Below are positions 4,627 through 22,293 of a DNA stretch of 64,000 nt, piece after piece (the first letter of the stretch is position 1; every line of letters begins with the position of its first letter). The DNA is from an uncultured Gammaproteobacteria bacterium (GTDB lineage Bacteria; Patescibacteriota; Patescibacteriia; UBA9934). The notes under the pieces were generated by a model, which was not told where the DNA came from, did no database searches, and worked only from the letters and a program-made list of their open reading frames with translations. The translations under genes were made by a program, and so were the position numbers. The DNA is taken from contig CAZTKG010000006.1 of NCBI GenBank assembly GCA_964613815.1, forward strand, positions 10,973-74,972, in the 5' to 3' direction.

Positions 4627-4654
4627 TAAATGCCTTAACATCTACACGACGTCG

Positions 4655-5181: not shown

Positions 5182-5305
5182 GTTGTCTCCTTGGTTGTTT
5201 GTAGGGATACCATACTGTTGATTTTGTTATTTGTTAAGTATCTTGGTATTTTCGTTGATTTTTTTGTCAAAATGCATTAGGGTTTGGGTGTCGAATTTTC
5301 GGCTT

Positions 5306-5701
5306 ATGCTCTTTGGAGTGGGCTTGTCACTGCGGTTGCTGGTTGCTTTTGATAATTGGCCTTCGTTCAATGCTGATTTGGATGATGCTGAAACGATGCT
5401 CAATTTGGATGAGGCGGTTACGCGGATTCTGGTTGATATGGGTATTGGAGGGATTTCTGATGGGAGCCAGGTGCTTGTGAGCGCCGGGACTCGTCAAATT
5501 CGTTTGGATCGTCGGATTCTGGTTGTGCGGATTGAGGATCTTGCAGGGAAGCTTCAGATGCGGCTTGCGGAGTATATGGAGCTTCGTGATCGAGTCGGTG
5601 CTGCTGTTCGTGCTGATCTTCCTGGATGGACTTCGGAGATGGTTTTGACTTCTGTGGAGGTTGATGTGACGCGTGTTGGTCGTCTTTCTCGCGCTAGTTA
5701 G
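5306..5701 (+). CDS. hypothetical protein
   Basis: ORF with protein-like composition. The start was chosen at the internal ATG (MLFGVGLSL...), because the upstream part overlaps the probable promoter of the divergent membrane-protein gene. Confidence 0.35.
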   Translation: MLFGVGLSLRLLVAFDNWPSFNADLDDAETMLNLDEAVTRILVDMGIGGISDGSQVLVSAGTRQIRLDRRILVVRIEDLAGKLQMRLAEYMELRDRVGAAVRADLPGWTSEMVLTSVEVDVTRVGRLSRAS

Positions 5702-5754
5702 CGCGATCTTGCCCGGTTTCCGGGCGATTCTTTTTTTGGGTATACTCTGCGTAT

Positions 5755-6822
5755 ATGTATTCTAAAATGTTTTTTACGATGATCGCCGGTTTGGTGATTT
5801 TGGTTGTACTTGTGATTGTTGCGTTGTTTTTGCCAGGGATGAGTGACGAGGAGTTTTATGATGATGAGATTGATGTGGTTCCTTATGGGGAGGATGGGTT
5901 GGGAGATGTTGATGAGGAGGTAGAGATTGAAGATGAGGGGGTGGGCTTGAGCGCGGGGACGGTTCGTGAAAGTTCTTTGACTGTTCGTGTTGATGAGGGT
6001 TATGACGTGGATGAGTTGGAGAAATTTGAAGGATTTATTGTTAATCAGACGACGGGGGATCGGCAGTCGGTTCGTGTTTATAAGCCGTCTGTTGGCATTG
6101 ATTTGCCACTTGTTGTTTTTGTTCCTGGTGGGAGTGGAAGTGGGGCTGGTTTTGAACGTCCTGGGCCGAATGGAGATAGTGATGCGGAGGCTTTGGTTCG
6201 AGAGGGGGTGGTGGTTGTGATTTATGATCCGCTTGGTACTGGCGAAAGTGAGGGGGATTATGATTATCAGGGGTATGCTGATCAGGATGGGATTGCGGAT
6301 ATTTTATTTGGCGTGAAGGAGTTTGATTATGTCGACGATGCAAATATTGGTATTGCGAGTTTTTCTTATGGTGTGACCGGAGCGGCTGGGGTGCTTGCGC
6401 GGTATCCGGGGATGGGGATGAAGTTTTGGTCAGATTGGGAGGGGCCTTCCAGTCGGTTTTATACAACGGTTGAGTGTGGAGAAGGAAGGGCTGCTACTGG
6501 GCGAGATGGGGGTCCGGGATCATTTGATTGTGATGATGAGGAGCATTGGATTGGGCGTGAGGCTGCTGTGAGCGCGTTTGATGTGCATGTTGATTATTAC
6601 TGGCGCGTGCAGCAAGAGAATGATCATGTGCAGGATTCGTATGGGCATACGCTTGAGATGGTGGAGGCTCTTGTTTTGAATGATGTGGTGGATTTGGTGA
6701 GGGTAAACGATGGGAAGGTGAATGTGGTTTATGAAGAGGATGATGAAGTCCCTGTGGTGGAAAATGGAAATTTTTATGGCTTGTATGTGATGTCGAATAT
6801 TCTTGAAATGATTGATATGTAA
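5755..6822 (+). CDS. membrane-anchored alpha/beta-hydrolase-like protein with an acidic linker
   Basis: N-terminal TM helix, DE-rich linker, and a GIASFSYGVTGAAG nucleophile elbow. A bidirectional terminator lies at 6825-6850. Confidence 0.6.
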   Translation: MYSKMFFTMIAGLVILVVLVIVALFLPGMSDEEFYDDEIDVVPYGEDGLGDVDEEVEIEDEGVGLSAGTVRESSLTVRVDEGYDVDELEKFEGFIVNQTTGDRQSVRVYKPSVGIDLPLVVFVPGGSGSGAGFERPGPNGDSDAEALVREGVVVVIYDPLGTGESEGDYDYQGYADQDGIADILFGVKEFDYVDDANIGIASFSYGVTGAAGVLARYPGMGMKFWSDWEGPSSRFYTTVECGEGRAATGRDGGPGSFDCDDEEHWIGREAAVSAFDVHVDYYWRVQQENDHVQDSYGHTLEMVEALVLNDVVDLVRVNDGKVNVVYEEDDEVPVVENGNFYGLYVMSNILEMIDM

Positions 6823-6850
6823 AAAAAGATCCTCGCCTTGGGCGGGGATT

Positions 6851-7249
6851 TTAGTAGCAGTTCTCGAAGAGGGTTTTGTAGGCGAGGCGTTCGATAGGGG
6901 CGAGGTTTCTGGCGGTTATCGTGTGGGGGAGCATGCCTTTTGCGATACCGCGCGGGTGCCAGATGAACTTGGTGAAGAGAAGTAGGCTTGCTGCGCAGGA
7001 TTCCATAGAGGGATTGTCTGTGCGGATTTTTCCTGAGCGATTGAGACATCCCCATTCCTCTGGGTCGTAGTAGCAGATGAGGGTTTGGCAGGCGATGATC
7101 GCGTTTTCGATTTCGACTTTTTTTGATGGATCGAGCTCCATCATTTTGTTGAGGAGTGAATGGATGATGTCGAGACAGAAGAGCATTTCGCCGAGTTTTT
7201 GTCCGGTGAGGTTTGGGGGTTTCCAGGGGGAGATGCGCGTGGTGGCCAT
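6851..7249 (-). CDS. hypothetical protein
   Basis: 132-aa ORF convergent with the hydrolase gene. No motif recognised. Confidence 0.45.
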   Translation of the reverse strand: MATTRISPWKPPNLTGQKLGEMLFCLDIIHSLLNKMMELDPSKKVEIENAIIACQTLICYYDPEEWGCLNRSGKIRTDNPSMESCAASLLLFTKFIWHPRGIAKGMLPHTITARNLAPIERLAYKTLFENCY

Positions 7250-7320
7250 TTGGTCTCCAGAAAGAGCTGATGCGTTAGTTTAGAGGGGATATTGTTTTGT
7301 GTCAATTTGATTCGTGTTTG

Positions 7321-7356
7321 ATCATGTGTTAATATGTTAATACTAAGTATTACACT
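7321..7356 (+). promoter_or_regulatory. promoter/operator of the RHH-RelE module: direct repeat TGTTAATA x2 and palindrome TAATACTaAGTATTA
   Basis: Sequence gtgttaatatgttaatactaagtattacact lies immediately 5' of the antitoxin ATG. Confidence 0.5.
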
Positions 7357-7593
7357 ATGGCTAGAAAAACAAAGATTGTTTCTGTGTCACTTCCGGAGAA
7401 GATGGCAAAAGCGATTGATTTACTTTCTGAGGAAATGGATCAGACTCGAAGTGAGCTGATTCGTGATGCTGTGCGAGATTATTTGATTGATGCTCATCGA
7501 GATCGGGAGAGATTTTTAGAGATTTATGCTGCGACGCGTGGTGAGAAAATGGTTCCATTGGAAGAGTTTCGAAAGGAGTGTGGGTTGATTTAG
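7357..7593 (+). CDS. ribbon-helix-helix antitoxin (ParD/CopG-like)
   Basis: MARKTKIVSVSLPEKMAKAIDLLSEE..., an RHH fold signature. The stop sits 1 nt from the toxin start. Confidence 0.7.
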   Translation: MARKTKIVSVSLPEKMAKAIDLLSEEMDQTRSELIRDAVRDYLIDAHRDRERFLEIYAATRGEKMVPLEEFRKECGLI

Positions 7594-7594
7594 T

Positions 7595-7864
7595 ATGTAT
7601 CGGGTTGTTCTTTCCTCCCATTATCGACGGGCGTTTAAAAAGCTGAATTCTCGGGATCAGAAGCGCATTGATCGCGCTGTTTCGCTACTCGTTGATGATC
7701 CGTTTTTATGTGTGAATATTGAGTCAATTAAGGGGGTTCGAGAAAAAGCGTTTCGTCTTCGGGTTGGTCGTTATCGGGTTGTTTATTTTGTGATTACGAA
7801 AGATTTTGTGGTCGAAGTTTTGGGATTGTTTTTGAAGAAGGGTAAGGAGGATTATCAGATGTGA
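7595..7864 (+). CDS. relE: RelE/ParE-family toxin
   Basis: 89 aa with FRLRVGRYRVVYFV, the RelE core motif. Confidence 0.75.
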   Translation: MYRVVLSSHYRRAFKKLNSRDQKRIDRAVSLLVDDPFLCVNIESIKGVREKAFRLRVGRYRVVYFVITKDFVVEVLGLFLKKGKEDYQM

Positions 7865-7879
7865 TATCCTGCGTGCATT

Positions 7880-9184
7880 ATGGCAGGAAAGATTAAGATT
7901 AGTAAGGATTTTAAACGCGCGTTTCAGTTGATGAATGAAACGGATTTGCATTTGTTTTTGACCGGGCGTGCTGGGACGGGAAAGTCGACGCTTTTGACGT
8001 ATTTTCGGAAGCATACGAAAAAACAGATTGCGATTTTGGCGCCTACGGGGGTGGCGGCGCTTAATGTGAAGGGGCAGACGATTCATTCTTTTTTTGGGTT
8101 TAAGCCGAGTGTGACGAAGGAGACGGTGCGGCGAGCGAAGAAGGATCAGCTTGATATGTTTGATAAATTGGAAGCGATTGTGATTGATGAGATTTCGATG
8201 GTGCGAGCGGATCTTTTGGATTGTGTTGATCGAGCGCTTCGGCTTAATCGGGCGAAGCCAGATATTCCGTTTGGTGGGGTGCAAATGATTTTTATTGGAG
8301 ATTTGTATCAGTTGCCGCCGGTGCTTACGGATCAGGAGCGGTTTATTTATGAGATGATGTATCAATCGCCGTACTTTTTTTCTGCGTATGCGCTTGGGGA
8401 TTTTGATATTACGGTTGTTGAATTGAAAAAAGTTTATCGGCAGAAGGATAAGGATTTTGTGAATCTGTTGAATCGGGTTCGGGATAATCAGCTCCTTAGT
8501 GATGATTTGGATGTTTGGAATGGGCGGCATGATCCGTTTTTTGATCCTGAGGAGCATGGGGAGGCGGTGCATTTGACGACGACGAATAAGATGGCGCAGT
8601 TGCGGAATGATTTTGAGTTGAGGCGACTTGAGGGGGAGGAGTGGGAGTTTAAGGGGGTGACGAGTGGGGAGTTTGATTCGCGGCGTGTGCCGGCGCCGGC
8701 GACGTTGAAATTGAAAGCTGGTAGCCGCGTGATGTTTACGTGTAATGATGTGCATCGACGGTGGGTGAATGGGTCGATTGGGACGGTTGTTTCTGTGAAG
8801 AAGGATCGGCCGCTTGCGAAGCATCCGACGGTTCGGGTGGAGCTCACTACAGGTGATGAGGTGAGAGTGGAGCCGCATACGTGGAATACCTATACGCATG
8901 TATTGAATCAGTCGAATGGGGATGTGGAGACGTCGCCTATTGGGTCTTACACGCAGTTTCCGCTTATGCTTGCTTGGGCGGTGACGATTCACAAGAGTCA
9001 GGGGAAGACGTTTGATAAGGTTTTGGTGGATGTGGGGTATGGGACGTTTGCGCATGGGCAGTTGTATGTGGCGCTCAGTCGATGTACGACGTTGAAGGGG
9101 ATTACGCTTCGGAAGCCGTTTCGGGCGAAGGATGTGATTTTGGATGATCGGGTGGTGGATTTTGTGAAGGCTTATACGGAATAA
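7880..9184 (+). CDS. Pif1/RecD-family 5'-3' DNA helicase
   Basis: Walker A (TGRAGTGKST), a Walker B DExx-like block (IVIDEISMV), and the C-terminal block LYVALSRCTTLKGITL typical of Pif1/RecD2/TraA-like helicases. Confidence 0.8.
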   Translation: MAGKIKISKDFKRAFQLMNETDLHLFLTGRAGTGKSTLLTYFRKHTKKQIAILAPTGVAALNVKGQTIHSFFGFKPSVTKETVRRAKKDQLDMFDKLEAIVIDEISMVRADLLDCVDRALRLNRAKPDIPFGGVQMIFIGDLYQLPPVLTDQERFIYEMMYQSPYFFSAYALGDFDITVVELKKVYRQKDKDFVNLLNRVRDNQLLSDDLDVWNGRHDPFFDPEEHGEAVHLTTTNKMAQLRNDFELRRLEGEEWEFKGVTSGEFDSRRVPAPATLKLKAGSRVMFTCNDVHRRWVNGSIGTVVSVKKDRPLAKHPTVRVELTTGDEVRVEPHTWNTYTHVLNQSNGDVETSPIGSYTQFPLMLAWAVTIHKSQGKTFDKVLVDVGYGTFAHGQLYVALSRCTTLKGITLRKPFRAKDVILDDRVVDFVKAYTE

Positions 9185-10432: not shown

Positions 10433-11110
10433 TTAGCGGAATTTGTGGTAGATGACACGGCCTCTCTTCTGACTTGTGGGTGGGGGAGGGGCTGTTTTTG
10501 CCATTTCGATTCCGTGGGCGATGATGCAGGGTTGTTGTTCGGTCGCTTTGACGATGTGTTCGATCGTGGCGTTGATCGTGCATCTTTCGGCGTCGACGTC
10601 GTCTGCGTTGGTGGCCAGTTGGAGGTCTCCAGCGAGTCCAATGAGAAAGTGTTCGATTTCGTTCAGCATCGCTTGTGCGCGATCTGCGTTTTCTCGTAGT
10701 TCGCTTGATCGATCAATTTCTCGTAGGGCGCGAGAGGTGTCGTTGATGCTTGGTGCCCCTCGAAGGCTTTTTCGTGCGATTCGAATGGCGACTGATTGAT
10801 CGCGCGTGAGCAGGACAGTGTGTCTGGCGAGGATTGGTGCGTACGTGTTTGCGACTAGGCTTACTTGGCCGCGTTCGTGGGTCCAGTAGTCTGTCCGGAT
10901 GTGAGATAGGCACCTAGCGTGGGCTTTGTTGATGCCTCGGGTCATCTGCCAAACGTGGATTTTGAGAATTAACTTGCGGAGGAGTTTCCATTTCGGGCGT
11001 TTTCTGATTCGCCAGAATCGATGGACGAGCAGCGGGATTGTGATGATCAATCCGATGAGGCTGCCGATGATCATGAGAGAGAGGATTGTGTTGAATATGG
11101 TGTGTAGCAT
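10433..11110 (-). CDS. membrane-anchored hypothetical protein
   Basis: N-terminal TM helix. A promoter (TTGACA-17-TAATGT) lies at about 11150-11185. Confidence 0.5.
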   Translation of the reverse strand: MLHTIFNTILSLMIIGSLIGLIITIPLLVHRFWRIRKRPKWKLLRKLILKIHVWQMTRGINKAHARCLSHIRTDYWTHERGQVSLVANTYAPILARHTVLLTRDQSVAIRIARKSLRGAPSINDTSRALREIDRSSELRENADRAQAMLNEIEHFLIGLAGDLQLATNADDVDAERCTINATIEHIVKATEQQPCIIAHGIEMAKTAPPPPTSQKRGRVIYHKFR

Positions 11111-11276
11111 TGGATTCTCGATGGATGTTGAAAGAACTGTTGGTGGATGACATTAGCAATGATATTGCTTTTTGTCAACTCTGTCGTTCGCGATCGATAG
11201 GGTGTGCCTCGTGGCATTGGAGGATGCTTTGAGTAGTGTATAAAAAAATCCCTCGTGGGTGCGAGGGGGGTGGATA

Positions 11277-12065
11277 TCACCAGGCGGTGGGGAATGTGTG
11301 GACGGTGAAGTTGCCGAGCATGGCGTCCATGCTGCGGTGGATGTATTCGACGTCGCCGAGGTCGTTCTGGCCGCGGATGAGAACGGAGCCTTGGTAGACG
11401 GGGCCAATGATGTCGCCGTGGACGGGCATCTGGGTGGAGAATTCGTACACGCCGTTTGGCATGGCGGTGTAGGTGAGCTTTCCGTCGATGACCTGAGGCG
11501 GGTTGTAGCGTGAGCAGTGCAAGCCGCGCCATGCTGGGGACATGTCGTCGCCGTGGATGACGCGATGGCCTTCCGGGTAGCCTTGACAGTAGAGAGGTTC
11601 TCCGTTCTCGATGATCGGGCCGTAGGAGGGCATGGTGCCGGGGCGGCCGGTGTGGCGGTTGCCCCAGACGACGGTGTGGTTGTCGCGGCTGTCGATGCCG
11701 ACGAAGAGCGGGGCTTCGTCTACCATGATGACGGGGGCGGCGGCCTGGAAGGTGGTCAGCTCGACGCCGGCGAATTCGGCGAAGCCGCGGTTGTCGGAGA
11801 TGCGGTAGAACCAGCCGTAGTTGGCCTCCCCCCATCCGACAGTGGATCCGTCGTCGCCGTTTCGGGCGACGTAAACGGGGTCGCCGTCGACGAAGTCGAA
11901 GACTTCGATGTCGTGAAAGGTGACGCTGCCGTTGTCCCAGGTGAGGGTGCAGGTGTAGTGGAGTTCGTTTGTTGTGGCGACGAGGCTTGGGGCATCGAGG
12001 CCTTCGGGGATGATGCAGTCGATGGGGACGGGATTGTTGAGGAAGCCGAGGACGAGGGGTGTCAT
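11277..12065 (-). CDS. hypothetical protein
   Basis: 262-aa ORF. A promoter (TTGACA-17-TAACCT) lies at 12095-12125. A terminator hairpin + T-run lies at about 11235-11270. Confidence 0.5.
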   Translation of the reverse strand: MTPLVLGFLNNPVPIDCIIPEGLDAPSLVATTNELHYTCTLTWDNGSVTFHDIEVFDFVDGDPVYVARNGDDGSTVGWGEANYGWFYRISDNRGFAEFAGVELTTFQAAAPVIMVDEAPLFVGIDSRDNHTVVWGNRHTGRPGTMPSYGPIIENGEPLYCQGYPEGHRVIHGDDMSPAWRGLHCSRYNPPQVIDGKLTYTAMPNGVYEFSTQMPVHGDIIGPVYQGSVLIRGQNDLGDVEYIHRSMDAMLGNFTVHTFPTAW

Positions 12066-12104
12066 GGATTGCTCCTGGTTGGGTGAAATGTACGAAGGGG
12101 GAGG

Positions 12105-12419
12105 TTAGCGTGTTTTTGGGTGTTTGTCAAGGGTTTGAAGAATTCGTTGTTCTGCGAGTTTGTAGATTTTTGATCGATGTCCGATGATGTAAACGATGAC
12201 AGTTTGTTTTTGAATTTTGTATATAATTCGATAATTACCTACTCGGAGAGAGAGGTAGCCTTTTAGCGGAGGGACGAGATGTTTTCCGAAAAGATGAGGT
12301 TTTTTTCTGAGTTTTTCGCGTATTGATTTGTCGATGCGTTTTTTGATGGAGTTTGAAAATTTTGGAACATCTTTTTTGAGCACGCTTTCACGATATGCTA
12401 TTTGATAGGTGTTCCCCAC
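12105..12419 (-). CDS. relE: RelE/ParE-family toxin
   Basis: Core LSLRVGNYRIIYKIQKQTVIVYIIGHRSKIY. The proposed GTG start (VGNTYQIAYRE...) overlaps the antitoxin stop by about 20 nt. The track ORF begins further upstream at a non-credible start. Confidence 0.65.
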   Translation of the reverse strand: MGNTYQIAYRESVLKKDVPKFSNSIKKRIDKSIREKLRKKPHLFGKHLVPPLKGYLSLRVGNYRIIYKIQKQTVIVYIIGHRSKIYKLAEQRILQTLDKHPKTR

Positions 12420-12625
12420 ACTTCTTCGTGCGTTAATAGTTTTTCGTCTTTTCGTGCGTCGGCTAGCTCTGTCCAAATCATGTCTTCTTGCTCACTTATC
12501 GCTTTTTCTAATAAATCGGTGGCGATTTTTGTTTTTGAGACACCTTTATATTTAGCGAGTTTTGAGATCCAGAATTCCAGCTTTTCATTCAGAATTAGGT
12601 TTAGTCTTGGTTTTGTTGTAGGCAT
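12398..12625 (-). CDS. antitoxin of the RelE module (RelB/ParD-like)
   Basis: A 75-aa ORF starts at the ATG at 12625 (MPTTKPRLNLILNEKLEFWISKLAKYKGVSKTKIATDLLEKAI...). It lies immediately upstream of, and overlaps, the toxin gene. Confidence 0.55.
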   Translation of the reverse strand: MPTTKPRLNLILNEKLEFWISKLAKYKGVSKTKIATDLLEKAISEQEDMIWTELADARKDEKLLTHEEVWGTPIK

Positions 12626-12723
12626 ATATTTAGTGTGACACCAGTGTATCACTTTTGTTTGAGGATGTAAAATCAGGGACTGCTTGTGCAGTCCCTGTGA
12701 GAGGAGCTGATCATGGAGGATGA

Positions 12724-13518
12724 TCAGGAGATGAAGCCGCCGGCGGCGGTGGTGGAGAAGGCGGCGGCGGTCTGGCTGGCTCGGACGGCCGAGCGGGAGA
12801 AGACGTTGAAGGCGGCGCGGATCTCGGTGGGGGTGCCGGAGGGGGTTAGGATCCATTCGTCCTCGAGGCCCATGGAGCGGAAGACGGCCGTGAAGTCGGT
12901 GGAGCCGTCGTCAATGCCCATGGCGGCCACGATGTGGGTCTCGGCGGCCAGCATGTCGGAGACGACCTTCTTGATCTTCGCCGGGGTTTGGCGACGAGAG
13001 GTGCAGTCGGCGCCGTCGGTGATGATGAGGGTGACGGTGCGGCACGGGACGCCGTTGTCTTCGAACTCCTGCGCCTTGGCGAGGACGGTCGCGAGGATGA
13101 CGGCGGTCTCGTCGTAGAGCGGGGTCATGCCCATGGGGTCGTAGTTCGAGGTGTCCATGGTGGGGACGCCGGAGAGGGGCGAGTAGGGGTAGAGGATGGT
13201 GCCGTTCAGGTACCGGGTGTGGGCGATGATGCCGTCGCCCTGCTTGGAGTCCTTGAGGGCGTCGATGACGAGGTTGTGACCAGCGCGTACAGCGTCCGCG
13301 TTCTTGCCGAAGCGGATCGAGCCAGAGTCGTCGATGAGCATGGTGACCAGCACGACTTCGCTTGCGGTGACGTCGTCGACGGCGACGCCGAGGCCGGCGG
13401 CGATGTTGGCGCCGATGTCGGGGATGTTGAGGGCCATGACGGAGGCGGGGGTGAGCGTGCCGTCGTCGGTTGCGGCGTTGAAGAGGGAGGCGACGTTTGC
13501 TACGGTGGAGGAGGACAT
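12724..13518 (-). CDS. von Willebrand factor A (vWA) domain protein, TerY-like
   Basis: MIDAS motif DxSxS (MLIDDSGSI), plus TLIITDGADC and a further T/D. It is the last gene of the PP2C-kinase-amidase-vWA operon. Confidence 0.75.
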   Translation of the reverse strand: MSSSTVANVASLFNAATDDGTLTPASVMALNIPDIGANIAAGLGVAVDDVTASEVVLVTMLIDDSGSIRFGKNADAVRAGHNLVIDALKDSKQGDGIIAHTRYLNGTILYPYSPLSGVPTMDTSNYDPMGMTPLYDETAVILATVLAKAQEFEDNGVPCRTVTLIITDGADCTSRRQTPAKIKKVVSDMLAAETHIVAAMGIDDGSTDFTAVFRSMGLEDEWILTPSGTPTEIRAAFNVFSRSAVRASQTAAAFSTTAAGGFIS

Positions 13519-13700
13519 GGGGAGCTCCTTTGGAGCGATGATGTCCCTGCGGGACGGATAGAGCCCTTTTGGGGCGATAGGGATCCTGCGGATCGATAGA
13601 TGGCCACTCTTCGCGCTGCCGGGAAGCTTTGCGAAGAGTGGTTTTTGGGTTGCGTTTGGTACACTCCCGCCGGAGTTGTTTGATGATGATGTTGACTTGA

Positions 13701-14750
13701 TTAGGAGATGATCAGGTCAGGCCAGTCATTCATTGGGGTCATGGACTCGACGAGATGCATGCCGGCGGATTCGAAGCGCTTGAGGGCGGCTTCGGACTCG
13801 GGGGTGAAGTCGGCCACGAAGCCTCCGGCGCCGTCCGGGATCGCGACCGAAGACATGCAGTCGGTGAGGATGTAGACCTTGCTGACGAGCGACGGGTCGC
13901 GGGCGGCGATGTCGTCGAGGAGGTCGTCGATGGAGGACTTGACGCAGTGGCTTGCGGCCTGGCCGGCGATGATGACGGCGTCGGAGTCCACGAGCTTCTT
14001 GAGGAAGCCGGCGTTCCTCTGGGCGAGGGGGGCGCCGTCGTGACGGGTGAGGACTTCGGGGCGGAAGACGCTGTAGTTCTCGGTGAGCGGATGGCCGCCC
14101 TTCACTTCGCACCACGACTGGGAGCCGCGGGTGAAGCTGTGGAACAGGCGCGCTTCGTGGATGTTGCCGGCGAGGGCGTGACCGGTGGATCCGAGGAGGC
14201 AGTGCGGGGGCCAGAGGTAGAGGGCATACTTGCCCTCGCGTTCGAGCTCCTTGGTGTAGTGGATGACCTGCTTGAGGAGCCAGGCGTAGTTGCCGCTACA
14301 AAGCCACCAGGCCATCGCAGGGTTCGGACGGACGGCACCGGACTTGATCTCGGTGGTGGTGATGACGCGGAAGGGGGTGAGGGGAGCGCCAGCGCTATCG
14401 ATCCAGAATGACGCGAAGAAGATCTGGTACGCGAAGTGCGTGTCCATGGTGGTGGTGATGTCGGTGATGGCGCCGAGGTTCCGGTAGATGAATTCGGCGG
14501 TGCGGCGGGAGTCGTCGATGGCGCCAGAACCGGAGCGGCCGCCGACGTAGAGCGTGCCTTCGGGGAAGCAGAAGTCGCGCTGGACGTCGATGAGGAGGAG
14601 GTGGATGCGGGTTCGGTCGCTGGCGGCGGGGGTGATGGAGTTCGACTTGCGGTAGTCCGTCGCTGCGGCCATCAGGGTCATCTGGTCGGGGTTGTAGTCG
14701 AAGCGGGCGGAGGTGGGGGTGTAGAAGCTGGGCAGGGGGAGGGTGGTCAT
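13701..14750 (-). CDS. pncA: PncA-type nicotinamidase / isochorismatase-family cysteine hydrolase, 349 aa with insertions
   Basis: LLLIDVQRDFCFPEGTLYVGG, WPPHCLLGSTGHAL and IIAGQAASHCVKSSIDD match the PncA blocks IVDVQNDFCEGGSLAVTGG, WPPHCVSGTPGADF and VVGIATDHCVRQTAEDA. Catalytic D, K-region and C are present. Confidence 0.75.
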   Translation of the reverse strand: MTTLPLPSFYTPTSARFDYNPDQMTLMAAATDYRKSNSITPAASDRTRIHLLLIDVQRDFCFPEGTLYVGGRSGSGAIDDSRRTAEFIYRNLGAITDITTTMDTHFAYQIFFASFWIDSAGAPLTPFRVITTTEIKSGAVRPNPAMAWWLCSGNYAWLLKQVIHYTKELEREGKYALYLWPPHCLLGSTGHALAGNIHEARLFHSFTRGSQSWCEVKGGHPLTENYSVFRPEVLTRHDGAPLAQRNAGFLKKLVDSDAVIIAGQAASHCVKSSIDDLLDDIAARDPSLVSKVYILTDCMSSVAIPDGAGGFVADFTPESEAALKRFESAGMHLVESMTPMNDWPDLIIS

Positions 14751-14887
14751 GGGGATCTCCTTTGAGCGGTAGAGCCCTTTTGGGCGATAGGGATCCTTGC
14801 GGATCGATGGGGGCGCTTTGCGCCGACAGGGTTCAGCGAAGCTGAACGATAGGGTTGTTGTTGAACGTGCGTAGATTTTTCCAAGCT

Positions 14888-16753
14888 CTACGCGAGCTTG
14901 AGGAGGGAGATGTCTTTGTGATTTACCACGTAGATGCCTCCTGGCGCGGGGAAGAGGGCGCTTTCGGTGGTGACGAATGGTGCCGTTTTTGGGAACTCTT
15001 TGGCTTTTGTGATGGAAGAGCTATTGATGTCCATGCGGACGATGCCGTCGTCGGTTGCTGCGAGCAGCATGGGGCCTATTGCGCATTTTCCTCGAATGGT
15101 GCCGAGCCAGGTTCCGTCCTTTGAATGTGTCTCGGCGGATGCGATGACGGATCCATTCTGTTTGATGACGGTGCATCTATTGAGAATTTTTCCGGCATGC
15201 TTGTAGGTGACGAACAGCCAGCAGTGGGTGTGCGAGAAGCTGCAGGTTATGTCGATGAGCTGACCAGGGATTTTGGGCAGGTTGATCGAGTCATTGAGGC
15301 TTCTTGCGCCTTTTGTGAACATGAACGCGACGTTCATGGTTCCGGCTCGGTAGAGGCCGAAACCGAAGGTTTCTCCGGTCCAGATGAGGGTTTGGCCTTC
15401 GAGAATGTCGCCGATGTAGACTTCGCCGAAGTCATCTGCTTTCCGGAGCTGATGTCCTCTGGTGAAGAATGTGTGTTCACCGTTTGCGTCGAAGATGGGG
15501 AGATTTCGGAAGGATCCGATTGCTTTGCGCTCTGGAGGTCTTCCTGATTTGAGAGAGACGAGTATGCCGTTTCGGCCGAGGATTGTTTTGTTGCCAGAGA
15601 TGCGGTAGCGCATTTTTGGCTCGAACGATCCTGTGGTTACGCGGCGGCCGTCTTCTCGTTTGAGGGCATTGTTTTCGTGGTAGATCCAGCGGAGTTTTCC
15701 GTTTTGGACTGTCGCGAATACGATGTGACCTGAAGTGCGGAAGAATCGGTTGTTTGTGACGTTTCCGATAACGGTGACGGTTTCTTTGACGGCTGTTGCT
15801 GGAGTTCCAGCGCATGCGGGGCAGGTGAGTCTGGCGTGAACGAGATCGCAATGCGTGCATGTTTTCCAGTCCAGGTTTTTGATGAGGTGCTCAGGGAATG
15901 ATCCTCGGGCATCTTTTTTGAAGACCTGGTAGAAGTGCTGAAGAAGGTCGTCGGGGATGGAGTGCAGCGGGAGGGCTGGCTTGGGGTAGCGGACTTCGTC
16001 GTCGAAGAGGGTGATGCGACGAAGGGGGCGCTCCGGATGTTTGACGCGTTTTTTCTTGTCCCTTGGCTTGTAGACACCTCCGAATGGGCCGACACAGAGG
16101 AGGCAATACATGAGCATGGTGGTGAATGCGTACCAGTCTGAGTTCTCATTGTGCGGCTTGTGCAGCGTGAGATGAGACTGGTTCGGATCTGCGAGAAGCG
16201 GGTCCATGTAGCGTTCGGTGTACATGCGCGCGAACCATTTGCCGTACTGAAAGCTGTCAGCGTCGATGATGTAGGCCTCGGCGTCACGTATGAGGACGTT
16301 GAGGTCGTTGAAGTCGCCGATGACGACTCCGCGGGCGTGGATGGCTCCGACGGTTTTGTGCAGGTCAAGGAATATTTTGACGATGCGTGCCGGGTCCACG
16401 GTGAGGCGGAATTGTTTTTCGCTGAAGGCTCTGAGCGGGTCTGCACCTGGAATCAGGCGCATGGTGTAGCCAGCTATTTGATTGCCGCGTTTGCTTGTGG
16501 CGAGATCGATTGGGGTGATGACTCTTGCGGGGAGACCTTTTGGAAAGGCAGGAAGCTTTGCCTGATGTTCTTTGATTCGAGCTTTGGCGTTTGCTTGCTC
16601 TCCGGGGTCTCCGTGGAAGTCGGCATGGCTTGCGGTTTTGAAGATCTTGGCCGCTTTGCCTGAGCCGATGTCGTAGACGTCCGCCTCGCTCCCTTTGCCG
16701 AGTGTTCGGCTGGGATCGATACGAATGCGCCGACCGTTGATGTAGGTGTGCAT
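14888..16753 (-). CDS. atypical protein-kinase-like protein with a Cys4 zinc ribbon and a C-terminal beta-rich domain
   Basis: The N-terminus carries a Gly-rich loop LGKGSEADVYDIG, a VAIK-like AAKIFK, a catalytic-loop-like HARGVVIGDFNDLNVLI and a DFG-like IIDADSF. These are followed by CTHCDLVHARLTCPAC and about 280 aa of beta-strand-rich sequence. Confidence 0.7.
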   Translation of the reverse strand: MHTYINGRRIRIDPSRTLGKGSEADVYDIGSGKAAKIFKTASHADFHGDPGEQANAKARIKEHQAKLPAFPKGLPARVITPIDLATSKRGNQIAGYTMRLIPGADPLRAFSEKQFRLTVDPARIVKIFLDLHKTVGAIHARGVVIGDFNDLNVLIRDAEAYIIDADSFQYGKWFARMYTERYMDPLLADPNQSHLTLHKPHNENSDWYAFTTMLMYCLLCVGPFGGVYKPRDKKKRVKHPERPLRRITLFDDEVRYPKPALPLHSIPDDLLQHFYQVFKKDARGSFPEHLIKNLDWKTCTHCDLVHARLTCPACAGTPATAVKETVTVIGNVTNNRFFRTSGHIVFATVQNGKLRWIYHENNALKREDGRRVTTGSFEPKMRYRISGNKTILGRNGILVSLKSGRPPERKAIGSFRNLPIFDANGEHTFFTRGHQLRKADDFGEVYIGDILEGQTLIWTGETFGFGLYRAGTMNVAFMFTKGARSLNDSINLPKIPGQLIDITCSFSHTHCWLFVTYKHAGKILNRCTVIKQNGSVIASAETHSKDGTWLGTIRGKCAIGPMLLAATDDGIVRMDINSSSITKAKEFPKTAPFVTTESALFPAPGGIYVVNHKDISLLKLA

Positions 16754-16762
16754 TGATTGATC

Positions 16763-17578
16763 CTATTTGGAAGCGGTTTTTCTTCCACAGATGATGGTGG
16801 TGTCGTCTTCGAGCAGCCCAGAAAAACGTGTAATACGTCTTCCAGGCCAGTCCACTTTTTGACCGTCACGGTTCATGATTCTGAGGCGTCTGTTGATCGC
16901 CTCTGGGTTTTTGTAGAACCGGTCATTTGTCCAGAACTGGTCGATTCCTCCTACGACTTCGTGTTTTCCTGGAAGGAGACAGTCAGCGCGTTTGATGATA
17001 TTTTCGGCGCCATCTGTTCCGATGAGGAAGTGCTTCACTTCGCTTGTTGGGCCCTGCCATGCGACCTGTAAGGTCATGGATTCAGGGGCCACGTCTTTGA
17101 GGCTGGTGGGGACGAGGTCGTATGCGATGTAGATTGGTGTATTGCCTTCTTGAGGGTTCAGAATGATTGTTTTGTCGTTGATCTGGATCATTCCGTCACC
17201 GCAGAAGAAAGCGGTTGTGGTGTCTTTTTGCACCATGATGCCGATAATGGTGAAGAGGAAGTGGTCGGCGATGATGCGGTTGGGGTTTGCGCCCATGTTT
17301 CGTGCGAGGGTGAGGATCTGCTGTTTGATCATGCCGCTGGCGGCGAGCAGTCCTGTGCTTGCAGGGAGGTGCGTACAGTTTGCAATTGCTTTTGCTGCGA
17401 TGTGCGCGCCGATTTTGGCGCCTACTTCGCTGTGAGGTGCGCTTCCACATCCGTCTGTGACGATGGCGATGAAGCCGTCTTTGATGGGGATGATGCGGAA
17501 GCCGTCCTGGTTGTTTTTTCCCGATTTTCGATGCGATCTGCCCGTAACGGTGCCGTTCGCAAGTTCGAAGGTGGTCAT
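16763..17578 (-). CDS. PP2C-family Ser/Thr protein phosphatase
   Basis: FIAIVTDGCGS, FFCGDGM and FLIGTDG are the metal-binding Asp motifs of PPM phosphatases. It is the first gene of the operon, and its stop lies 10 nt from the kinase start. Confidence 0.8.
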   Translation of the reverse strand: MTTFELANGTVTGRSHRKSGKNNQDGFRIIPIKDGFIAIVTDGCGSAPHSEVGAKIGAHIAAKAIANCTHLPASTGLLAASGMIKQQILTLARNMGANPNRIIADHFLFTIIGIMVQKDTTTAFFCGDGMIQINDKTIILNPQEGNTPIYIAYDLVPTSLKDVAPESMTLQVAWQGPTSEVKHFLIGTDGAENIIKRADCLLPGKHEVVGGIDQFWTNDRFYKNPEAINRRLRIMNRDGQKVDWPGRRITRFSGLLEDDTTIICGRKTASK

Positions 17579-17803
17579 TGGGTTTCCGGGGTTGAGTTGT
17601 GAAAGGGCTGCTGCGTTTATACGCAGATTGCGGGAGGGAAGTGGCTATCTTCCAACCCAGAATCTGGGTATAATTGTTTTATTGACACTAAGTACTTGGA
17701 AAAATTTTTATGGAGGGTTTGTGGCCTTTGGCCGTTTGTATCGCTTTGCGATGTTTGTGGCCCTTTGGGCCGTTTGTTGGAATTTGTTGTTGTTGATATT
17801 ACA

Positions 17804-17866
17804 CTAACTAACACATAAAAAAATAGTTGTCAACCCCGTAAAAATCAGCGAGCTGATTCACGTGGC
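17804..17866 (-). promoter_or_regulatory. promoter of the PP2C-kinase-pncA-vWA operon (TTGACA-16-TTAGTT) with a conserved upstream module GCCACGTG-N-AATCAGCgaGCTGATT-TTTAC-GGGG
   Basis: Reverse complement reads gCCACGTGaatcagctcgctgattTTTACggggTTGACAactatttttttatgtgTTAGTT. The same architecture recurs at 18668-18731 and 24112-24171. Confidence 0.5.
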
Positions 17867-17876
17867 ATGGTCTCTT

Positions 17877-17956
17877 TCCCATCTCGACCTTGTGGAGAGA
17901 TCTGATAGCGACCAGGGCATGAGATCTCTCCACAGGGTCGAGATGGGAAGAGGGGG
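17877..17956. repeat. complete copy of a dispersed inverted-repeat element: 26-bp arms CCCATCTCGACCTTGTGGAGAGATCT / AGATCTCTCCACAGGGTCGAGATGGG around an 18-nt centre, followed by AAGAGGGGGG
   Basis: Seen directly. It is homologous to the copies at 38970, 42524, 48921 and 63089. Confidence 0.7.
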
Positions 17957-17959
17957 GTG

Positions 17960-18643
17960 TTAGATATGCATAATGTCTATTTCTTTGAATGATCGGGACT
18001 TGAAGCTGTAGAGGGCGGCGGGACGGTTGGCTTGACCTGTTTGTTTGCGGCCGGTGGGTTTGATGAGGTCTAGGGAGAGGAGTTTTCGGCGGAAGTTTCG
18101 TTTGTCTAGTTTTTTGCCGAGGATTGTTTCGTAGGTTGCTTGGAGGTCTGTGAGGGTGAATTCTTTTGGAAGAAGGGACCAGACGATGTTGGTGTAGCCG
18201 AGTTTTGCCTTTAATCGCTTATGCGCGAGTTTGATGACAGTTTTGTGGTCGTAGGCGAGGGGAGGGAGTTTTTTGATGGAGACCCAGCGGACGTCTTTGT
18301 ACTTTTCTGAAGTTTTGAGGGGGTAGCGGCCACTTGGGAGAAGGGCGAAGTAGGTGATGGAGATGACGCGGCCCAGGGGGTCTCGTTTGATGTCGTCGAA
18401 GGTTTGGAGTTGTTCTAAGTATGCTGATTTGACGCCTGTCTGTGCATTTAGGATGCGAATTGTGGCGTCTTTTGATGTTTCGGCTTGTTTGATGAGGCCT
18501 CCTGGAACGGCCCATTTGTCTGTGAATGGGGCGCGTTTCATTTGGATGAGGAGGACTTTGAGGTCATTGTTTTGGACGGTAAAAATGACTGCATCGGCAG
18601 CGATTTTGATGTTTTGTCCGTTCCAATGTTTCGGGGTAGCCAT
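17960..18643 (-). CDS. NrtR-like regulator: NUDIX hydrolase domain fused to a C-terminal winged-helix domain
   Basis: Nudix box GGLIKQAETSKDATIRILNAQTG (GX5EX7REUXEEXGU-like), with about 90 aa of C-terminal basic/helical sequence. The start was taken at the ATG (MATPKHWNG) because the track's GTG start lies inside the -10 box. Its own promoter (TTGACA-17-TACTTT) lies at 18668-18697. Confidence 0.65.
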   Translation of the reverse strand: MATPKHWNGQNIKIAADAVIFTVQNNDLKVLLIQMKRAPFTDKWAVPGGLIKQAETSKDATIRILNAQTGVKSAYLEQLQTFDDIKRDPLGRVISITYFALLPSGRYPLKTSEKYKDVRWVSIKKLPPLAYDHKTVIKLAHKRLKAKLGYTNIVWSLLPKEFTLTDLQATYETILGKKLDKRNFRRKLLSLDLIKPTGRKQTGQANRPAALYSFKSRSFKEIDIMHI

Positions 18644-18667
18644 AGGGTGTTTGTGTCGTATGTACAC

Positions 18668-18731
18668 AAAGTATCATGGGTTTTGGGTGTTGTCAACCTC
18701 TGTAAAGATCAGTAGGGCTAATCCGCGTGGC
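18668..18731 (-). promoter_or_regulatory. promoter of the NrtR-like gene, carrying the same upstream module (GCCACGCG...TTTAC..GGTTGACAA)
   Basis: Reverse complement reads GCCACGCGgattagccctactgatcTTTACagagGTTGACAacacccaaaacccatgaTACTTT. Confidence 0.5.
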
Positions 18732-20016: not shown

Positions 20017-20427
20017 TTATTTGTTTAGAAATGTTTCAAAAGCTGGATGGAGGTTTGGGATGAGGGATTCGTTTTGATAATTGAGGGGATCGATCCATTT
20101 GAAGGCTGAGTGGTCTTCGGAGAGAGTGACGTTTTGGGTGTTTGATTGGCAGTGGAAGAAGGTTCCGACGATTTGCCACTGTTCACCTCTTACTGTTGGG
20201 CGCCATTCGTTCATGAAGAAGGGGGTTCCGATGGTGACTGTGAGGCTTGTTTCTTCCATGATTTCTCGTTTTAAAGCGTCTAGGAAGTGTTCGCCTGGGT
20301 TTAGGCGGCCTCCTGGGACGTCGAATTGACCTCGGTTTGATGCGTCTTTGTAGGATTGTGATTCTGCGAGGACGAGGATTTTTCCGTTGTGTTCGATAAA
20401 GGCTTTTGTGGCTACGAAGAGGCGCAT
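20017..20427 (-). CDS. NUDIX hydrolase
   Basis: Nudix box GGRLNPGEHFLDALKREIMEETSL. Confidence 0.75.
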   Translation of the reverse strand: MRLFVATKAFIEHNGKILVLAESQSYKDASNRGQFDVPGGRLNPGEHFLDALKREIMEETSLTVTIGTPFFMNEWRPTVRGEQWQIVGTFFHCQSNTQNVTLSEDHSAFKWIDPLNYQNESLIPNLHPAFETFLNK

Positions 20428-20491
20428 AGGGGGATTTTTTGATTGTTGATGTCATTATCTTGACATGATTTACTTTATTGTGTAAGTTTTC

Positions 20492-20890
20492 TTGTTCTTT
20501 TCTGGAGGCGTGATGGGGACGATGATTCGTCTTGGGCGCGCGTCTCAGATTGTGACGTGCGTTGAGTTGACTGGATACTCTTCGGTGACCGTGGGGCTTT
20601 TGATGCGTTCGCGGGTTTCGATCAATGCTGGTTGGGCGTACGACTTTCATTTTTTCTTTCTTCTGAATGGTGAGCGGATTCCGCTTCAGGTGCGAGCTTC
20701 TTGTGACCGGCGTGACCGGCGGAGTTTGCAAGTTGGGTTTCAGCCTATTTGGGAGCAGGTGACGGATCTTGAGCAGGCGGCGCGTGATGGTGTGCTTGAG
20801 CTTCTCATCGTTCATCATTTTCGTGGGGCTTTTCATACTCACCGTGTGTGGGTTGAGGCTCCTGGGGAAGGAGTTCTCTCGGCGTGCTGA
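20492..20890 (+). CDS. hypothetical protein (weak PilZ-like RxxxR / D-x-S-x-x-G resemblance)
   Basis: 132-aa ORF. Only a weak motif resemblance was found. Confidence 0.3.
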   Translation: MFFSGGVMGTMIRLGRASQIVTCVELTGYSSVTVGLLMRSRVSINAGWAYDFHFFFLLNGERIPLQVRASCDRRDRRSLQVGFQPIWEQVTDLEQAARDGVLELLIVHHFRGAFHTHRVWVEAPGEGVLSAC

Positions 20891-20913
20891 TGTGCGTCGG
20901 GTTTTTTGATAGA

Positions 20914-22293
20914 ATGGAGGATATGGGGTTTTTTGATTTTTTGAAGCGTCGGCCGGAGCAGAAAGAAGTAAAGGAGCGAGAGCGGCTTCAGTTTACGAGT
21001 TCTGAGGTCACGGAGGCGAGTTTGGCGCATCCGGATCGGAATGAGGATGCTTCTTTTGTGTCTGCGGAGGATGGATTTATGGTTGTTAGTGATGGAGCCG
21101 GTGGGCATGCTGGAGGGGATGAGGTTAGTCGGCGTATTGTTCAGTCTTTTGCGGAGACGCTTGAGCATGTGCGTGGAGTGGAGCTTGGGGAGGATTCTTT
21201 AGAAAAGGCGAGTGAGCTTTTGGAGATGCAGGTTTTGAAGGCTGCGCAGGATGCGTATACGTTTTCGATGGAGGTGGCGCAGACGCTTGATGATCCTAGG
21301 AAGCGGCCGATGGCGACGGTGATGGCTGGGCGGGTGATTCGGACGGAGCAGGGGATTCGTGCGATTATCAAAAGCGTTGGGGATGGACTTGCGTATGTGC
21401 GGCGAGCGAATGGGGAGGTGGAGCAGGTGCCGATTGTCGAGGATAGTTATGTGGCAATGTATTTTGAGAAGAAGGTGCGGAAGGGGGAGCTTTCTGAGGA
21501 GGATGTGTATCGGATTATGAATTGTTCTAGTCCTTTGGATTTTGATTTTGAGCCGGATTTGGTGAAGGGGGCGCTATTGAAAAAAGAAGCGCAGTTTTAT
21601 TTTAAGAAACGGAATGTTGTCACTGCTTCGCTTGGGAGTGATTTGCCTGATTCGCTGGATGTTCATTCGGCGATTGTGGCGCTGGATACGGGGGATGAGC
21701 TTTTCTTTATGAGTGATGGGGTGGAGAATTTGACGGATGATGAGCGGAAGATGCTTTTGAGTGGTGGGCCGCATTTGCAGTCTCGGGCGGAGGCTTTGAT
21801 GAGTAGTTCTGTTGCGCGGAGTCAGAGTCGGTCGAGGCGGTCGAAGAAGGATGATGTGACGGTGACGGGGCTTGAGGTGCGGGATGTGGTGCATGAGGAG
21901 ATGGAGAAGGCAGCTGCGGTGAATGCGAAGATTGAGCGGTTGCGTGATAGGCAGGAGGTGTTTGCTGGACGTGTGCGGGAGCTTGGAAAGCTTGTGAGAC
22001 GGAAGGGGGCTCGGCCTTTGGAGCGGATGGATTTGTATCAGACGCAGATGCAGCTTGCGGATGTGCAGTATGCGATTGGGAAGGCGCAGTTGGAGCTTTA
22101 TGATGAGGGGACGGATGATAAGCGGGATCAGTTTGAGATTCAGCGGCATAAGGAGACGATGCGGCTTGCGAAAGCGAATCGGACTCGGGCGGAGAATGCG
22201 CTCGGTCGGCTTCAGGGTGCTAGAGATGATGTTGACCGGGTGAAGGCTGATAAGGCTCGGGCGGCTGCGCGGAATGCGAGTAAGGGGGCTTGA
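20914..22293 (+). CDS. PP2C/SpoIIE-family phosphatase with a long C-terminal coiled coil
   Basis: HPDRNEDASFV, MVVSDGAGGHAGG, VGDGLAYV and FFMSDGV are PPM motifs. The C-terminal 130 aa is heptad-rich (ERLRDRQEVFAGRVRELGKLV...). The start is uncertain (M11/M14 of the track ORF). Confidence 0.7.
   Translation: MEDMGFFDFLKRRPEQKEVKERERLQFTSSEVTEASLAHPDRNEDASFVSAEDGFMVVSDGAGGHAGGDEVSRRIVQSFAETLEHVRGVELGEDSLEKASELLEMQVLKAAQDAYTFSMEVAQTLDDPRKRPMATVMAGRVIRTEQGIRAIIKSVGDGLAYVRRANGEVEQVPIVEDSYVAMYFEKKVRKGELSEEDVYRIMNCSSPLDFDFEPDLVKGALLKKEAQFYFKKRNVVTASLGSDLPDSLDVHSAIVALDTGDELFFMSDGVENLTDDERKMLLSGGPHLQSRAEALMSSSVARSQSRSRRSKKDDVTVTGLEVRDVVHEEMEKAAAVNAKIERLRDRQEVFAGRVRELGKLVRRKGARPLERMDLYQTQMQLADVQYAIGKAQLELYDEGTDDKRDQFEIQRHKETMRLAKANRTRAENALGRLQGARDDVDRVKADKARAAARNASKGA

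Follow-up and report, generated by a model that had tools for sequence, protein, structure and literature searches.

Why should the gene of a nicotinamidase-like protein lie among the genes of a putative protein phosphorylation switch? This question is raised by a 64,000-nt stretch of DNA (positions 10,973–74,972 of contig CAZTKG010000006.1, assembly GCA_964613815.1; the whole stretch is called the window in the following). In the window, five genes on the minus strand, all oriented in the same direction and spanning positions 12724–18670, encode the regulator NrtR, a PP2C phosphatase, a kinase with a Zn ribbon, a long PncA-like protein, and a stand-alone vWA protein (Table 1). An earlier note, made from the sequence alone, had proposed these domain assignments and the common orientation of the genes. 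Both were confirmed, the domain calls by profiles, structural models and alignments. The note had interpreted the locus as a TerY-P triad into which an NAD-salvage amidase was inserted. Our analysis leads to a different picture. The four genes behind nrtR form a dedicated module that is conserved across phyla, and our preferred interpretation, held with modest confidence, is that of an NrtR-repressed, ADP-ribose-inducible nicotinamide-salvage module, in which the pair formed by the enzyme and the vWA protein is gated by phosphorylation.

Conservation and order of the four genes

Homologues of the PncA-like protein are abundant, with thousands of sequences at ~70% identity and 280 clusters (50% identity) with E ≤ 1e-30 in a library search. 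A species scan with one genome each detected a relative in at least 432 species. Gene neighbourhoods were counted in the best 80 loci retrieved via the PncA-like protein, in which the window proteins were searched by tblastn; these loci stem from Elusimicrobia and from Myxococcota, the latter including Myxococcus xanthus, Archangium, Corallococcus, Haliangium, and Polyangia. The vWA gene was located immediately downstream of the PncA gene in every locus with enough flanking sequence (78/78). The kinase gene was found upstream in 62 of 64 loci and the PP2C gene was present in 59 of 62, and nrtR was located within 10 kb in 39 of the 80 loci. The identity to the window proteins across phyla was ~68% for PncA, ~60% for vWA, ~42% for the kinase and ~33% for PP2C. 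Loci in Myxococcota, Elusimicrobia, Cyanobacteria and Patescibacteria have the gene order PP2C-kinase-PncA-vWA in common. Consistent with these results, searches that started with the vWA or kinase sequence led to loci in Leptolyngbya, Nostocaceae, Parcubacteria, Uhrbacteria and Yanofskybacteria, and every neighbourhood re-examined contained all four genes. Hence, the four genes constitute a dedicated conserved module, of which the PncA-like protein is the most conserved member, and the picture of an amidase inserted into a pre-existing triad had to be abandoned.

A divergent version of the module was detected on a phage-like 152-kb IMG/VR contig (IMGVR_UViG_3300028327_000833, referred to as L106) at positions 4647–8846. 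Its genes follow the order vWA-PP2C-kinase-PncA-like, and their products (225, 240, 602 and 342 aa, respectively) share 23–35% identity with the window proteins. Around it lie genes for ThyX, a Dam methylase, an HNH endonuclease and a transposase, together with numerous ORFans in a common orientation. Five of the six IMG/VR matches were rejected as cases of phage carriage, as they are contigs of 81–266 kb (four of them 235–266 kb) that contain the ordinary module and possibly represent host DNA.

These data bear directly on the simplest explanation of the locus, namely that an NrtR-pncA salvage unit came to lie beside an unrelated PP2C/kinase/vWA triad by chance. In the window, the intergenic gaps of 137 nt (kinase-PncA) and 182 nt (PncA-vWA), both predicted to be structured, could hold separate promoters, and the PncA and vWA genes have a much higher G+C content (GC) than those of the kinase and PP2C. 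However, almost all loci examined, from at least four phyla, contain the four genes together, and so does the rearranged, 23–35% identical version. As the same four families are found together in two far-diverged arrangements, chance adjacency is untenable. In addition, NrtR boxes precede PP2C and not PncA alone, and the enzyme gene is embedded in the triad, as it is flanked by the kinase gene on one side and by the vWA gene on the other. We thus regard a fortuitous adjacency as extremely improbable and as effectively refuted by the conservation data.

Within the module, the PncA-like and vWA genes are the tightest unit. They are always adjacent, possess an NrtR box of their own where the operon is split, and in the window have a common base composition and a common leader element. 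In Archangium (L089/L090, 5929–9740), the kinase and PncA genes are separated by genes for a STAND-type NTPase (with weak NACHT/AAA matches) and a large TPR protein, which are located on the opposite strand. Similar kinase-PncA gaps exist in loci L015, L020, L022, L027, L028, L029, L036, and L046. Where the STAND-NTPase/TPR insertion splits the operon, the PncA-vWA pair stays together with its own NrtR box. The 5-kb Archangium insertion was also considered as an additional part of the module and was rejected, because the STAND-NTPase/TPR pair that it contains is unrelated and lies on the opposite strand. In Myxococcaceae, the locus does not resemble an island; its flanks are partly syntenic across genera, which indicates vertical inheritance of the module in this family.

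The long nicotinamidase homologue and its partner proteins

The PncA-like protein contains the blocks IDVQRDFC, WPPHC and SHCVK, which correspond to the motifs that the earlier note had listed for it. A profile-profile comparison with hhalign aligned the long family to two canonical nicotinamidase-type proteins with a probability of 96.3% (E = 2e-9, 230 columns) and paired D55, K217 and C269 with the triad residues (Asp, Lys and Cys) of the canonical enzymes. The two references came from related loci; one is encoded in an Uhrbacteria locus (L088) and matches the solved nicotinamidase 2wt9 at 1.8e-23, and the other one is a relative that is 31% identical to the L088 protein. In 15 family members from different phyla, no variation was found at the triad residues D55, K217 and C269 or at the metal ligands D103, H105 and H183. 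In known nicotinamidases, the metal ligands bind the free ring nitrogen of nicotinamide. All solved relatives that were detected for the PncA-like protein are nicotinamidases. Based on these sequence features, the protein is a divergent, long-form nicotinamidase homologue.

With canonical PncA (3pl1 of M. tuberculosis and 2wt9 of A. baumannii), the long protein has in common the signature of the isochorismatase-like fold, the D-K-C triad, the D-x-H...H metal site and the WPPHC block. Compared to the canonical enzyme, it is extended by ~48 aa at the N-terminus and is also longer at the C-terminus; ~58 aa are inserted between DTH and WPPHC, and another 9 aa in front of the catalytic Lys. Furthermore, it scores below the family thresholds and is always paired with a vWA gene. 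Another subfamily (P0369-P0371, P0374, P0391 and P0408) consists of an N-terminal domain of ~250 aa fused to a long nicotinamidase domain that is 44–58% identical to the window protein. This N-terminal domain had no match in Pfam or the PDB and is unlike the vWA, PP2C and kinase proteins of the module. An apparent PncA-vWA fusion (P0434) was rejected as a frameshifted read-through artefact.

Sequence searches with the vWA protein against Pfam, NCBIfam, PADLOC and the PDB gave no match, and its fold assignment was settled by the predicted structure only. The AlphaFold model (predicted local distance difference test score, pLDDT, 86) matched only vWA, integrin-I, Rpn10 and TFIIH-p44 domains in the PDB, with a probability of 1.0. 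The residues D63, S65, S67, T132 and D168 of its metal ion-dependent adhesion site (MIDAS) are invariant. Equally invariant are the metal-binding Asp motifs of the PP2C phosphatase (D25, D42-G43, G127-D128-G129, D189-G190 and D258-D259 in 14 homologues). The kinase remained under the threshold of the Pfam Pkinase model (0.0021), and its fold was recognized in the AlphaFold model (pLDDT 88.8), as Foldseek matched residues 1–295 to CaMKII, GRK2, IRAK4 and PknB. The invariance of K36, D147, N152, D164 and D166 leads us to expect an active kinase. The catalytic residues of all three enzymes of the module are thus intact. Behind the kinase fold follow a CxxC...CxxC Zn ribbon with invariant cysteines (C299, C302, C311 and C314) and an all-beta region of ~300 aa (residues 325–620), which comprises 29 strands in the model. 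From this strand pattern, the C-terminal domain looks like a seven-bladed propeller.

NrtR operators and NAD-related context

The regulator encoded at the upstream end of the locus was identified by matches to Pfam NrtR_WHD (1.6e-26) and NUDIX (5e-15) and to NCBIfam NtrR (3.9e-47, below the equivalog cutoff of this model). An alternative GTG start further upstream would extend the protein to 235 aa. Its Nudix box is degenerate, with RILNAQ in place of the REUxEE of active hydrolases, and for this reason NrtR is probably a sensor and not an enzyme. A degenerate, non-catalytic Nudix domain is typical of NrtR sensors (PMC2330246). According to the same study (Rodionov et al. 2008), ADP-ribose is an anti-repressor that releases NrtR from DNA, and the NrtR signature is a 21-bp palindrome with a GT-N7-AC core.

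Comparison of the nrtR-PP2C intergenic regions of related loci recovered a 21-bp palindrome, TTnGTGT-N7-ACACnAA, often present as two sites 22 bp apart. It fits the published signature and is the predicted NrtR operator. When 68 related loci (1.27 Mb) were scanned for this motif with up to one mismatch, 101 matches were obtained, of which 76 were located in the 38 kb (3% of the sequence) upstream of PP2C or nrtR. Of the other 25 matches, the majority were located 50–100 bp upstream of the PncA gene, also in Archangium and Hyalangium, in both of which the STAND-NTPase/TPR pair separates the kinase gene from PncA. The 64-kb window contains two matches at this stringency, compared to 0.16 expected, and both are situated at the promoters of nrtR and PP2C. 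Operator 1 (Table 1) is the sole match without a mismatch in the window. The earlier note had called the upstream gene NrtR-like and had taken it to tie the locus to NAD metabolism; the profile matches confirm the first claim, and the conserved operators in front of the operon strengthen the second.

Further links to NAD metabolism were found in the neighbourhoods of related loci. The nicotinate phosphoribosyltransferase gene pncB is adjacent to the module or within 10 kb of it in ~20 loci. It is divergent from PP2C in Parcubacteria and Yanofskybacteria, and it is located directly downstream of vWA in the same operon in Elusimicrobia. The Leptolyngbya module (L086, 4381–5196) includes an ADP-ribosylglycohydrolase gene. 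In Elusimicrobia and Uhrbacteria (L094/L088), the module is accompanied by a Band_7 gene and by a gene for a 303-aa protein that weakly resembles NAD kinase (Pfam NAD_kinase 4.6e-4, below the threshold).

In its control region, the module resembles the classical NrtR operons (nrtR-pncA-pncB, PMC2330246), which possess a repressor with a Nudix-like and a winged-helix domain, a 21-bp GT-N7-AC palindrome that overlaps promoters and a pncA-type target, often with pncB alongside. It is unlike them in that the amidase is a divergent protein of 350 aa instead of an enzyme of 180–230 aa, and in that the operon additionally contains the kinase, PP2C phosphatase and vWA genes. The regulon study (PMC2330246) covers no Myxococcota, and nothing in its tables resembles the module.

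According to the salvage interpretation, the sequence of events would start with the cleavage of NAD+. The released ADP-ribose would remove NrtR from the 21-bp operators before nrtR and PP2C (in many genomes also from those before the nicotinamidase gene), and the derepressed operon would then provide the long-form nicotinamidase. This enzyme would deamidate nicotinamide, the other product of NAD cleavage, to nicotinate for the PncB (Preiss-Handler) route; the adjacency of pncB and the control by NrtR support such an activity indirectly. The MIDAS vWA protein may be a binding partner or regulatory subunit of the enzyme. The dedicated Ser/Thr kinase and the PP2C phosphatase would set the phosphorylation of their presumed targets, the vWA protein, the enzyme or both. 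This phosphorylation state would gate the enzyme activity post-transcriptionally. In the kinase, the Zn ribbon and the beta-propeller-like domain might act as a sensor or docking module.

Several observations weigh against this interpretation. The PncA-like protein scores under the curated family thresholds of both Pfam (Isochorismatase PF00857: 16.5 bits, cutoff 27) and NCBIfam (PncA PRK11609: 26.8, cutoff 174), so that the PncA assignment of the earlier note fell short in these models and found its support in the hhalign comparison. As a single sequence, the protein shows weak similarity to PDB entries (3r2j at 0.004 and 3pl1 at 0.009), and a profile search of the PDB with an alignment of the long PncA family brought no gain (E = 0.002–0.007). 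A single-sequence phmmer alignment places the canonical catalytic Lys opposite the invariant R208 and not K217, and the identity of the third residue of the triad therefore rests on the profile alignment. No pncB gene was found within the 64-kb window. In the Uhrbacteria locus, a canonical nicotinamidase (L088, 3293–4066; PDB 2wt9, 1.8e-23) is encoded beside the long enzyme, which implies that the long enzyme may do something different. In Patescibacteria, toxin-antitoxin, restriction-modification and Abi-like genes are located near the module. We infer co-transcription of the operon in the window, across the two structured gaps, from a good terminator after vWA and from a search of the same strand from PP2C through vWA that found no terminator-like sites. 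Finally, it is not evident for what purpose a simple salvage amidase would require a kinase, a phosphatase and a vWA protein at its side.

Some of these points would also agree with a different role of the long PncA-like protein. It could be an amidase for another substrate than nicotinamide, such as a different pyridine or pyrazine carboxamide or a protein- or nucleotide-linked amide, or the vWA protein, kinase and phosphatase could mainly load or mature its metal centre. vWA proteins with a MIDAS act as metal-centre maturation factors in other systems, which counts for a maturation role. The title of PMC6941528 proposes metallochaperones for PncA. The subthreshold family scores, the ~150 extra residues with the large insertion between the metal-binding motifs, the canonical nicotinamidase in the Uhrbacteria locus and the fusion of the long domain to a ~250-aa domain in another subfamily all speak for this alternative as well. 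Nevertheless, we consider this alternative unlikely, given that the metal ligands and the catalytic triad are invariant, that the solved relatives detected are exclusively nicotinamidases, and that NrtR control together with pncB adjacency is the classic context of pncA (PMC2330246). Moreover, a maturation role would leave the dedicated kinase/phosphatase pair unexplained.

TerY-P likeness, surroundings and implications of the module

TerY-P systems, as PMC10542128 summarizes them after Anantharaman, Iyer and Aravind (2012), consist of a vWA protein, a PP2C phosphatase and a kinase fused to a C-terminal Zn ribbon. In the type of Gao 2020 described in the same source, the kinase has an oligonucleotide/oligosaccharide-binding (OB) fold, and related modules are stand-alone anti-phage systems. 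Measured against this description, the module shares with TerY-P three separate genes for a stand-alone MIDAS vWA protein, a PP2C_2-type phosphatase and a Ser/Thr kinase with a C-terminal Zn ribbon, and a presumed metal- and phosphorylation-dependent switch. It differs from the TerY-P systems described there by its obligatory fourth member, the long nicotinamidase encoded between kinase and vWA, and by the additional ~300-aa propeller-like domain of the kinase. The partners differ as well, being NAD-salvage genes and NrtR instead of ter genes, restriction systems and nucleases. In the neighbourhoods examined, ter or restriction genes were not a characteristic association, and NrtR, pncB, ADP-ribosylglycohydrolase, pncA and Band_7 genes were found instead. 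PADLOC defence models gave no match to the PP2C, vWA and PncA-like proteins even at E ≤ 10, in a search that lacked a bona fide TerY-P positive control, and the kinase matched only PD-T4-6 and generic kinase models but no TerY-P model. The TerY-P triad that the earlier note had recognized is thus present as an architecture in the sense of PMC10542128, whereas membership in the TerY-P families is not supported at the sequence level by PADLOC or Pfam VWA.

This architecture leads to the question of whether the module is a conflict system directed against phages or stress. In such a system, the TerY-P-like switch would sense infection and drive a nicotinamide-destroying effector, which could deny phages the nicotinamide for rebuilding NAD+ or relieve the inhibition of host NADase effectors by nicotinamide. 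NrtR would couple expression to ADP-ribose derived from NADases, and the copy on the phage-like contig would be a counter-measure. Besides the resemblance to TerY-P and its anti-phage relatives (in the description given by PMC10542128), sets of a kinase-Zn ribbon-beta-rich protein with PP2C and vWA have been noted in actinobacterial conflict systems (PMC7159879). The module of the window lies in a compositional mosaic beside a RelB/ParE pair, and in Patescibacteria its neighbours include MazEF, Fic, a HEPN-Nudix protein, restriction-modification genes and RelB/YafQ, an island-like context in small genomes. Also in line with this scenario are the gene content around the divergent L106 copy and the comparison of the vWA model with the viral structure library BFVD, in which phage vWA proteins were the best matches (TM 0.62–0.67). 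However, PADLOC assigned none of the four proteins to a defence system. The high conservation of PncA and vWA across phyla and the synteny in Myxococcaceae contrast with defence genes, which are usually patchy and fast-evolving. An adjacent or co-operonic pncB fits recycling rather than destruction of the pyridine ring, and no nuclease, NADase or other toxic effector was consistently linked to the module in the loci examined. Taken together, a role in conflict appears rather improbable. The suggestion of the earlier note that the locus is plausibly related to defence or stress was therefore not retained, as the context (pncB, ADP-ribosylglycohydrolase, canonical pncA and Myxococcaceae synteny) favours regulated NAD salvage. 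Its suggestion of a phospho-switch coupled to nicotinamide/NAD metabolism agrees with the module content and the NrtR operators.

Elements of both interpretations would be combined in a checkpoint between metabolism and immunity, an idea that we regard as speculative and distinctly unlikely. ADP-ribose is a by-product of the NADases used by many bacterial immune systems. If this ADP-ribose induced the module, the switch would decide between the recycling of nicotinamide, leading to recovery, and its withholding or destruction, with NAD remaining depleted and phages being denied nicotinamide for their NAD-reconstitution pathways, and the L106 copy would be a viral counter-version.

Stand-alone vWA proteins combined with Ser/Thr kinases and PP2C-type phosphatases also exist in two experimentally investigated cases, the archaeal ArnA/ArnB system with the ArnC/D kinases and the operon DRA0331-0334 of Deinococcus (bioRxiv 10.64898/2026.01.23.701218), and the ArnAB complex (PDB 8s05) was among the structural matches of the window vWA model. 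These systems differ from the module by their FHA-domain partners and by their control of motility or DNA-damage responses, and they possess neither a metabolic enzyme nor NrtR control.

Table 1 Features of the module, its predicted control sites and directly adjacent elements (positions refer to the window)
Feature	Position	Strand	Remarks
nrtR	17960–18643	minus	227 aa from ATG; Nudix-like effector domain and NrtR winged-helix DNA-binding domain
PP2C_2-family Ser/Thr phosphatase	16763–17578	minus	271 aa; Pfam PF13672 1e-18
Kinase	14888–16753	minus	621 aa; kinase fold 1–295, Zn ribbon 299–314, all-beta domain 325–620 (AlphaFold, Foldseek, alignment)
Long-form nicotinamidase homologue	13701–14750	minus	349 aa; triad D55/K217/C269, metal ligands D103/H105/H183
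Stand-alone vWA protein	12724–13518	minus	264 aa; complete MIDAS, N-terminal helical extension, conserved C-terminal GGF tail
Predicted NrtR operator 1	18650–18670	not assigned	perfect 21-bp palindrome TTTGTGTCGTATGTACACAAA; 7–27 nt upstream of nrtR ATG; putative autoregulation site
Predicted NrtR operator 2	17787–17807	not assigned	1 mismatch; overlaps the -10 of a TTGACA-type promoter upstream of PP2C
Weaker NrtR-like site	17671–17691	not assigned	2 mismatches; ~100 nt upstream of PP2C start
Inverted repeat	17876–17949	not assigned	31-nt arms, 94% complementary; directly after nrtR stop codon
Leader repeat, copy 1	14770–14808	minus	ATCGATCCGCAAGGATCCCTATCGCCCAAAAGGGCTCTA; structured 5' leader of PncA-like gene
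Leader repeat, copy 2	13559–13597	minus	5' leader of vWA gene
Intrinsic-terminator-like hairpin	12674–12697	minus	10-bp stem followed by T-rich tail; closes the operon after vWA
RelB-like antitoxin and ParE/RelE toxin	12398–12625 and 12105–12383 (pair 12105–12625)	minus	own promoter

The spacing of the genes is less uniform than the earlier note had stated. The kinase gene starts 9 nt downstream of PP2C, which is the sole tight junction among the four module genes, and the other two junctions are the wider gaps described above. The RelE-type toxin-antitoxin pair that had been reported directly downstream was found as a RelB/ParE-RelE pair in Pfam and NCBIfam searches; it is absent from the related loci and is a neighbour outside the module.

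The leaders of the PncA-like and vWA genes each contain a copy of an element of ~39 nt, ATCGATCCGCA(A)GGATCCCTATCGCCC(C)AAAAGGGCTCTA, which forms two small hairpins and has no further copy in the window. Both leaders fold better than shuffled versions (z = −2.8 for PncA-like and −4.4 for vWA), and the element may be a shared translational or RNA-stability signal for this gene pair. The inverted repeat behind nrtR looks like a dispersed palindromic element of the genome, similar to repetitive extragenic palindromic (REP) elements or miniature inverted-repeat transposable elements (MITE), as a 28-nt arm recurs exactly at positions 38966–38993, 21 kb away. It may act as a terminator or insulator.

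The GC of the genes is 66.7% for vWA, 65.0% for PncA-like, 55% for the kinase, 53% for PP2C, 49% for NrtR and 39% for RelB/ParE. An open reading frame (ORF) of 262 aa and of no assigned family at 11277–12065 has 63%, and the remainder of the window ~50%, which is also the approximate value of the genome. The region 10433–18643 is thus a mosaic in its composition, which suggests piecemeal horizontal acquisition; it was probably assembled by transfer. Among strain variants of the locus, L002 differs from L001 and L003 in the toxin-antitoxin region.

Further signalling and Nudix genes are located near the module at 20017–22293 and 35899–38004. Nearby genes encode a 136-aa Nudix protein that matches the PADLOC candidate PDC-S07 (7.6e-15), a second PP2C_2 protein of 469 aa with a long charged C-terminal region and a canonical Pkinase protein of 701 aa. 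The leucyl-tRNA synthetase ORF at 60012–63095 (1027 aa) has a Pfam match to Ham1p_like (ITPase family; residues 271–358, 1.5e-7), which would be an unusual insertion if real. A 978-aa ORF at 45932–48868 matched no Pfam family at E ≤ 1e-5. Across the whole window (1–64000), the GC skew is positive (+0.17 to +0.54 in every 2-kb bin) and T exceeds A, whichever strand the genes use; this skew is unusually strong.

In the literature that is searchable in full text, which leaves out many subscription papers including the original TerY-P paper, no description of the module was found. It apparently represents an NrtR salvage operon merged with a TerY-P-like switch and a layer of control over NAD recycling that has not been described. 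By the common view, bacteria regulate NAD salvage almost exclusively at the transcriptional level, through NadR, NiaR and NrtR. The module would depart from this view by tying a nicotinamidase-type enzyme firmly to a eukaryotic-type kinase, a PP2C phosphatase and a MIDAS/vWA partner of its own. If the salvage interpretation is true, this would be the first case known to us of phosphorylation control over the first step of nicotinamide recycling, and for the enigmatic TerY-P-type triads, an enzyme activity would become available as a concrete output that can be assayed. A further consequence would be a link between Ser/Thr phosphorylation and ADP-ribose signalling, a central topic of current research on NAD-depleting anti-phage immunity. 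As the module was found in Myxococcus xanthus and on metagenome-assembled contigs of Nostocaceae, two lineages with genetically tractable models, these ideas are directly testable, in the cyanobacteria provided that a model such as Nostoc proves to have an orthologue. For the genome-reduced Patescibacteria, which probably depend on salvage, the module may be a key control point.

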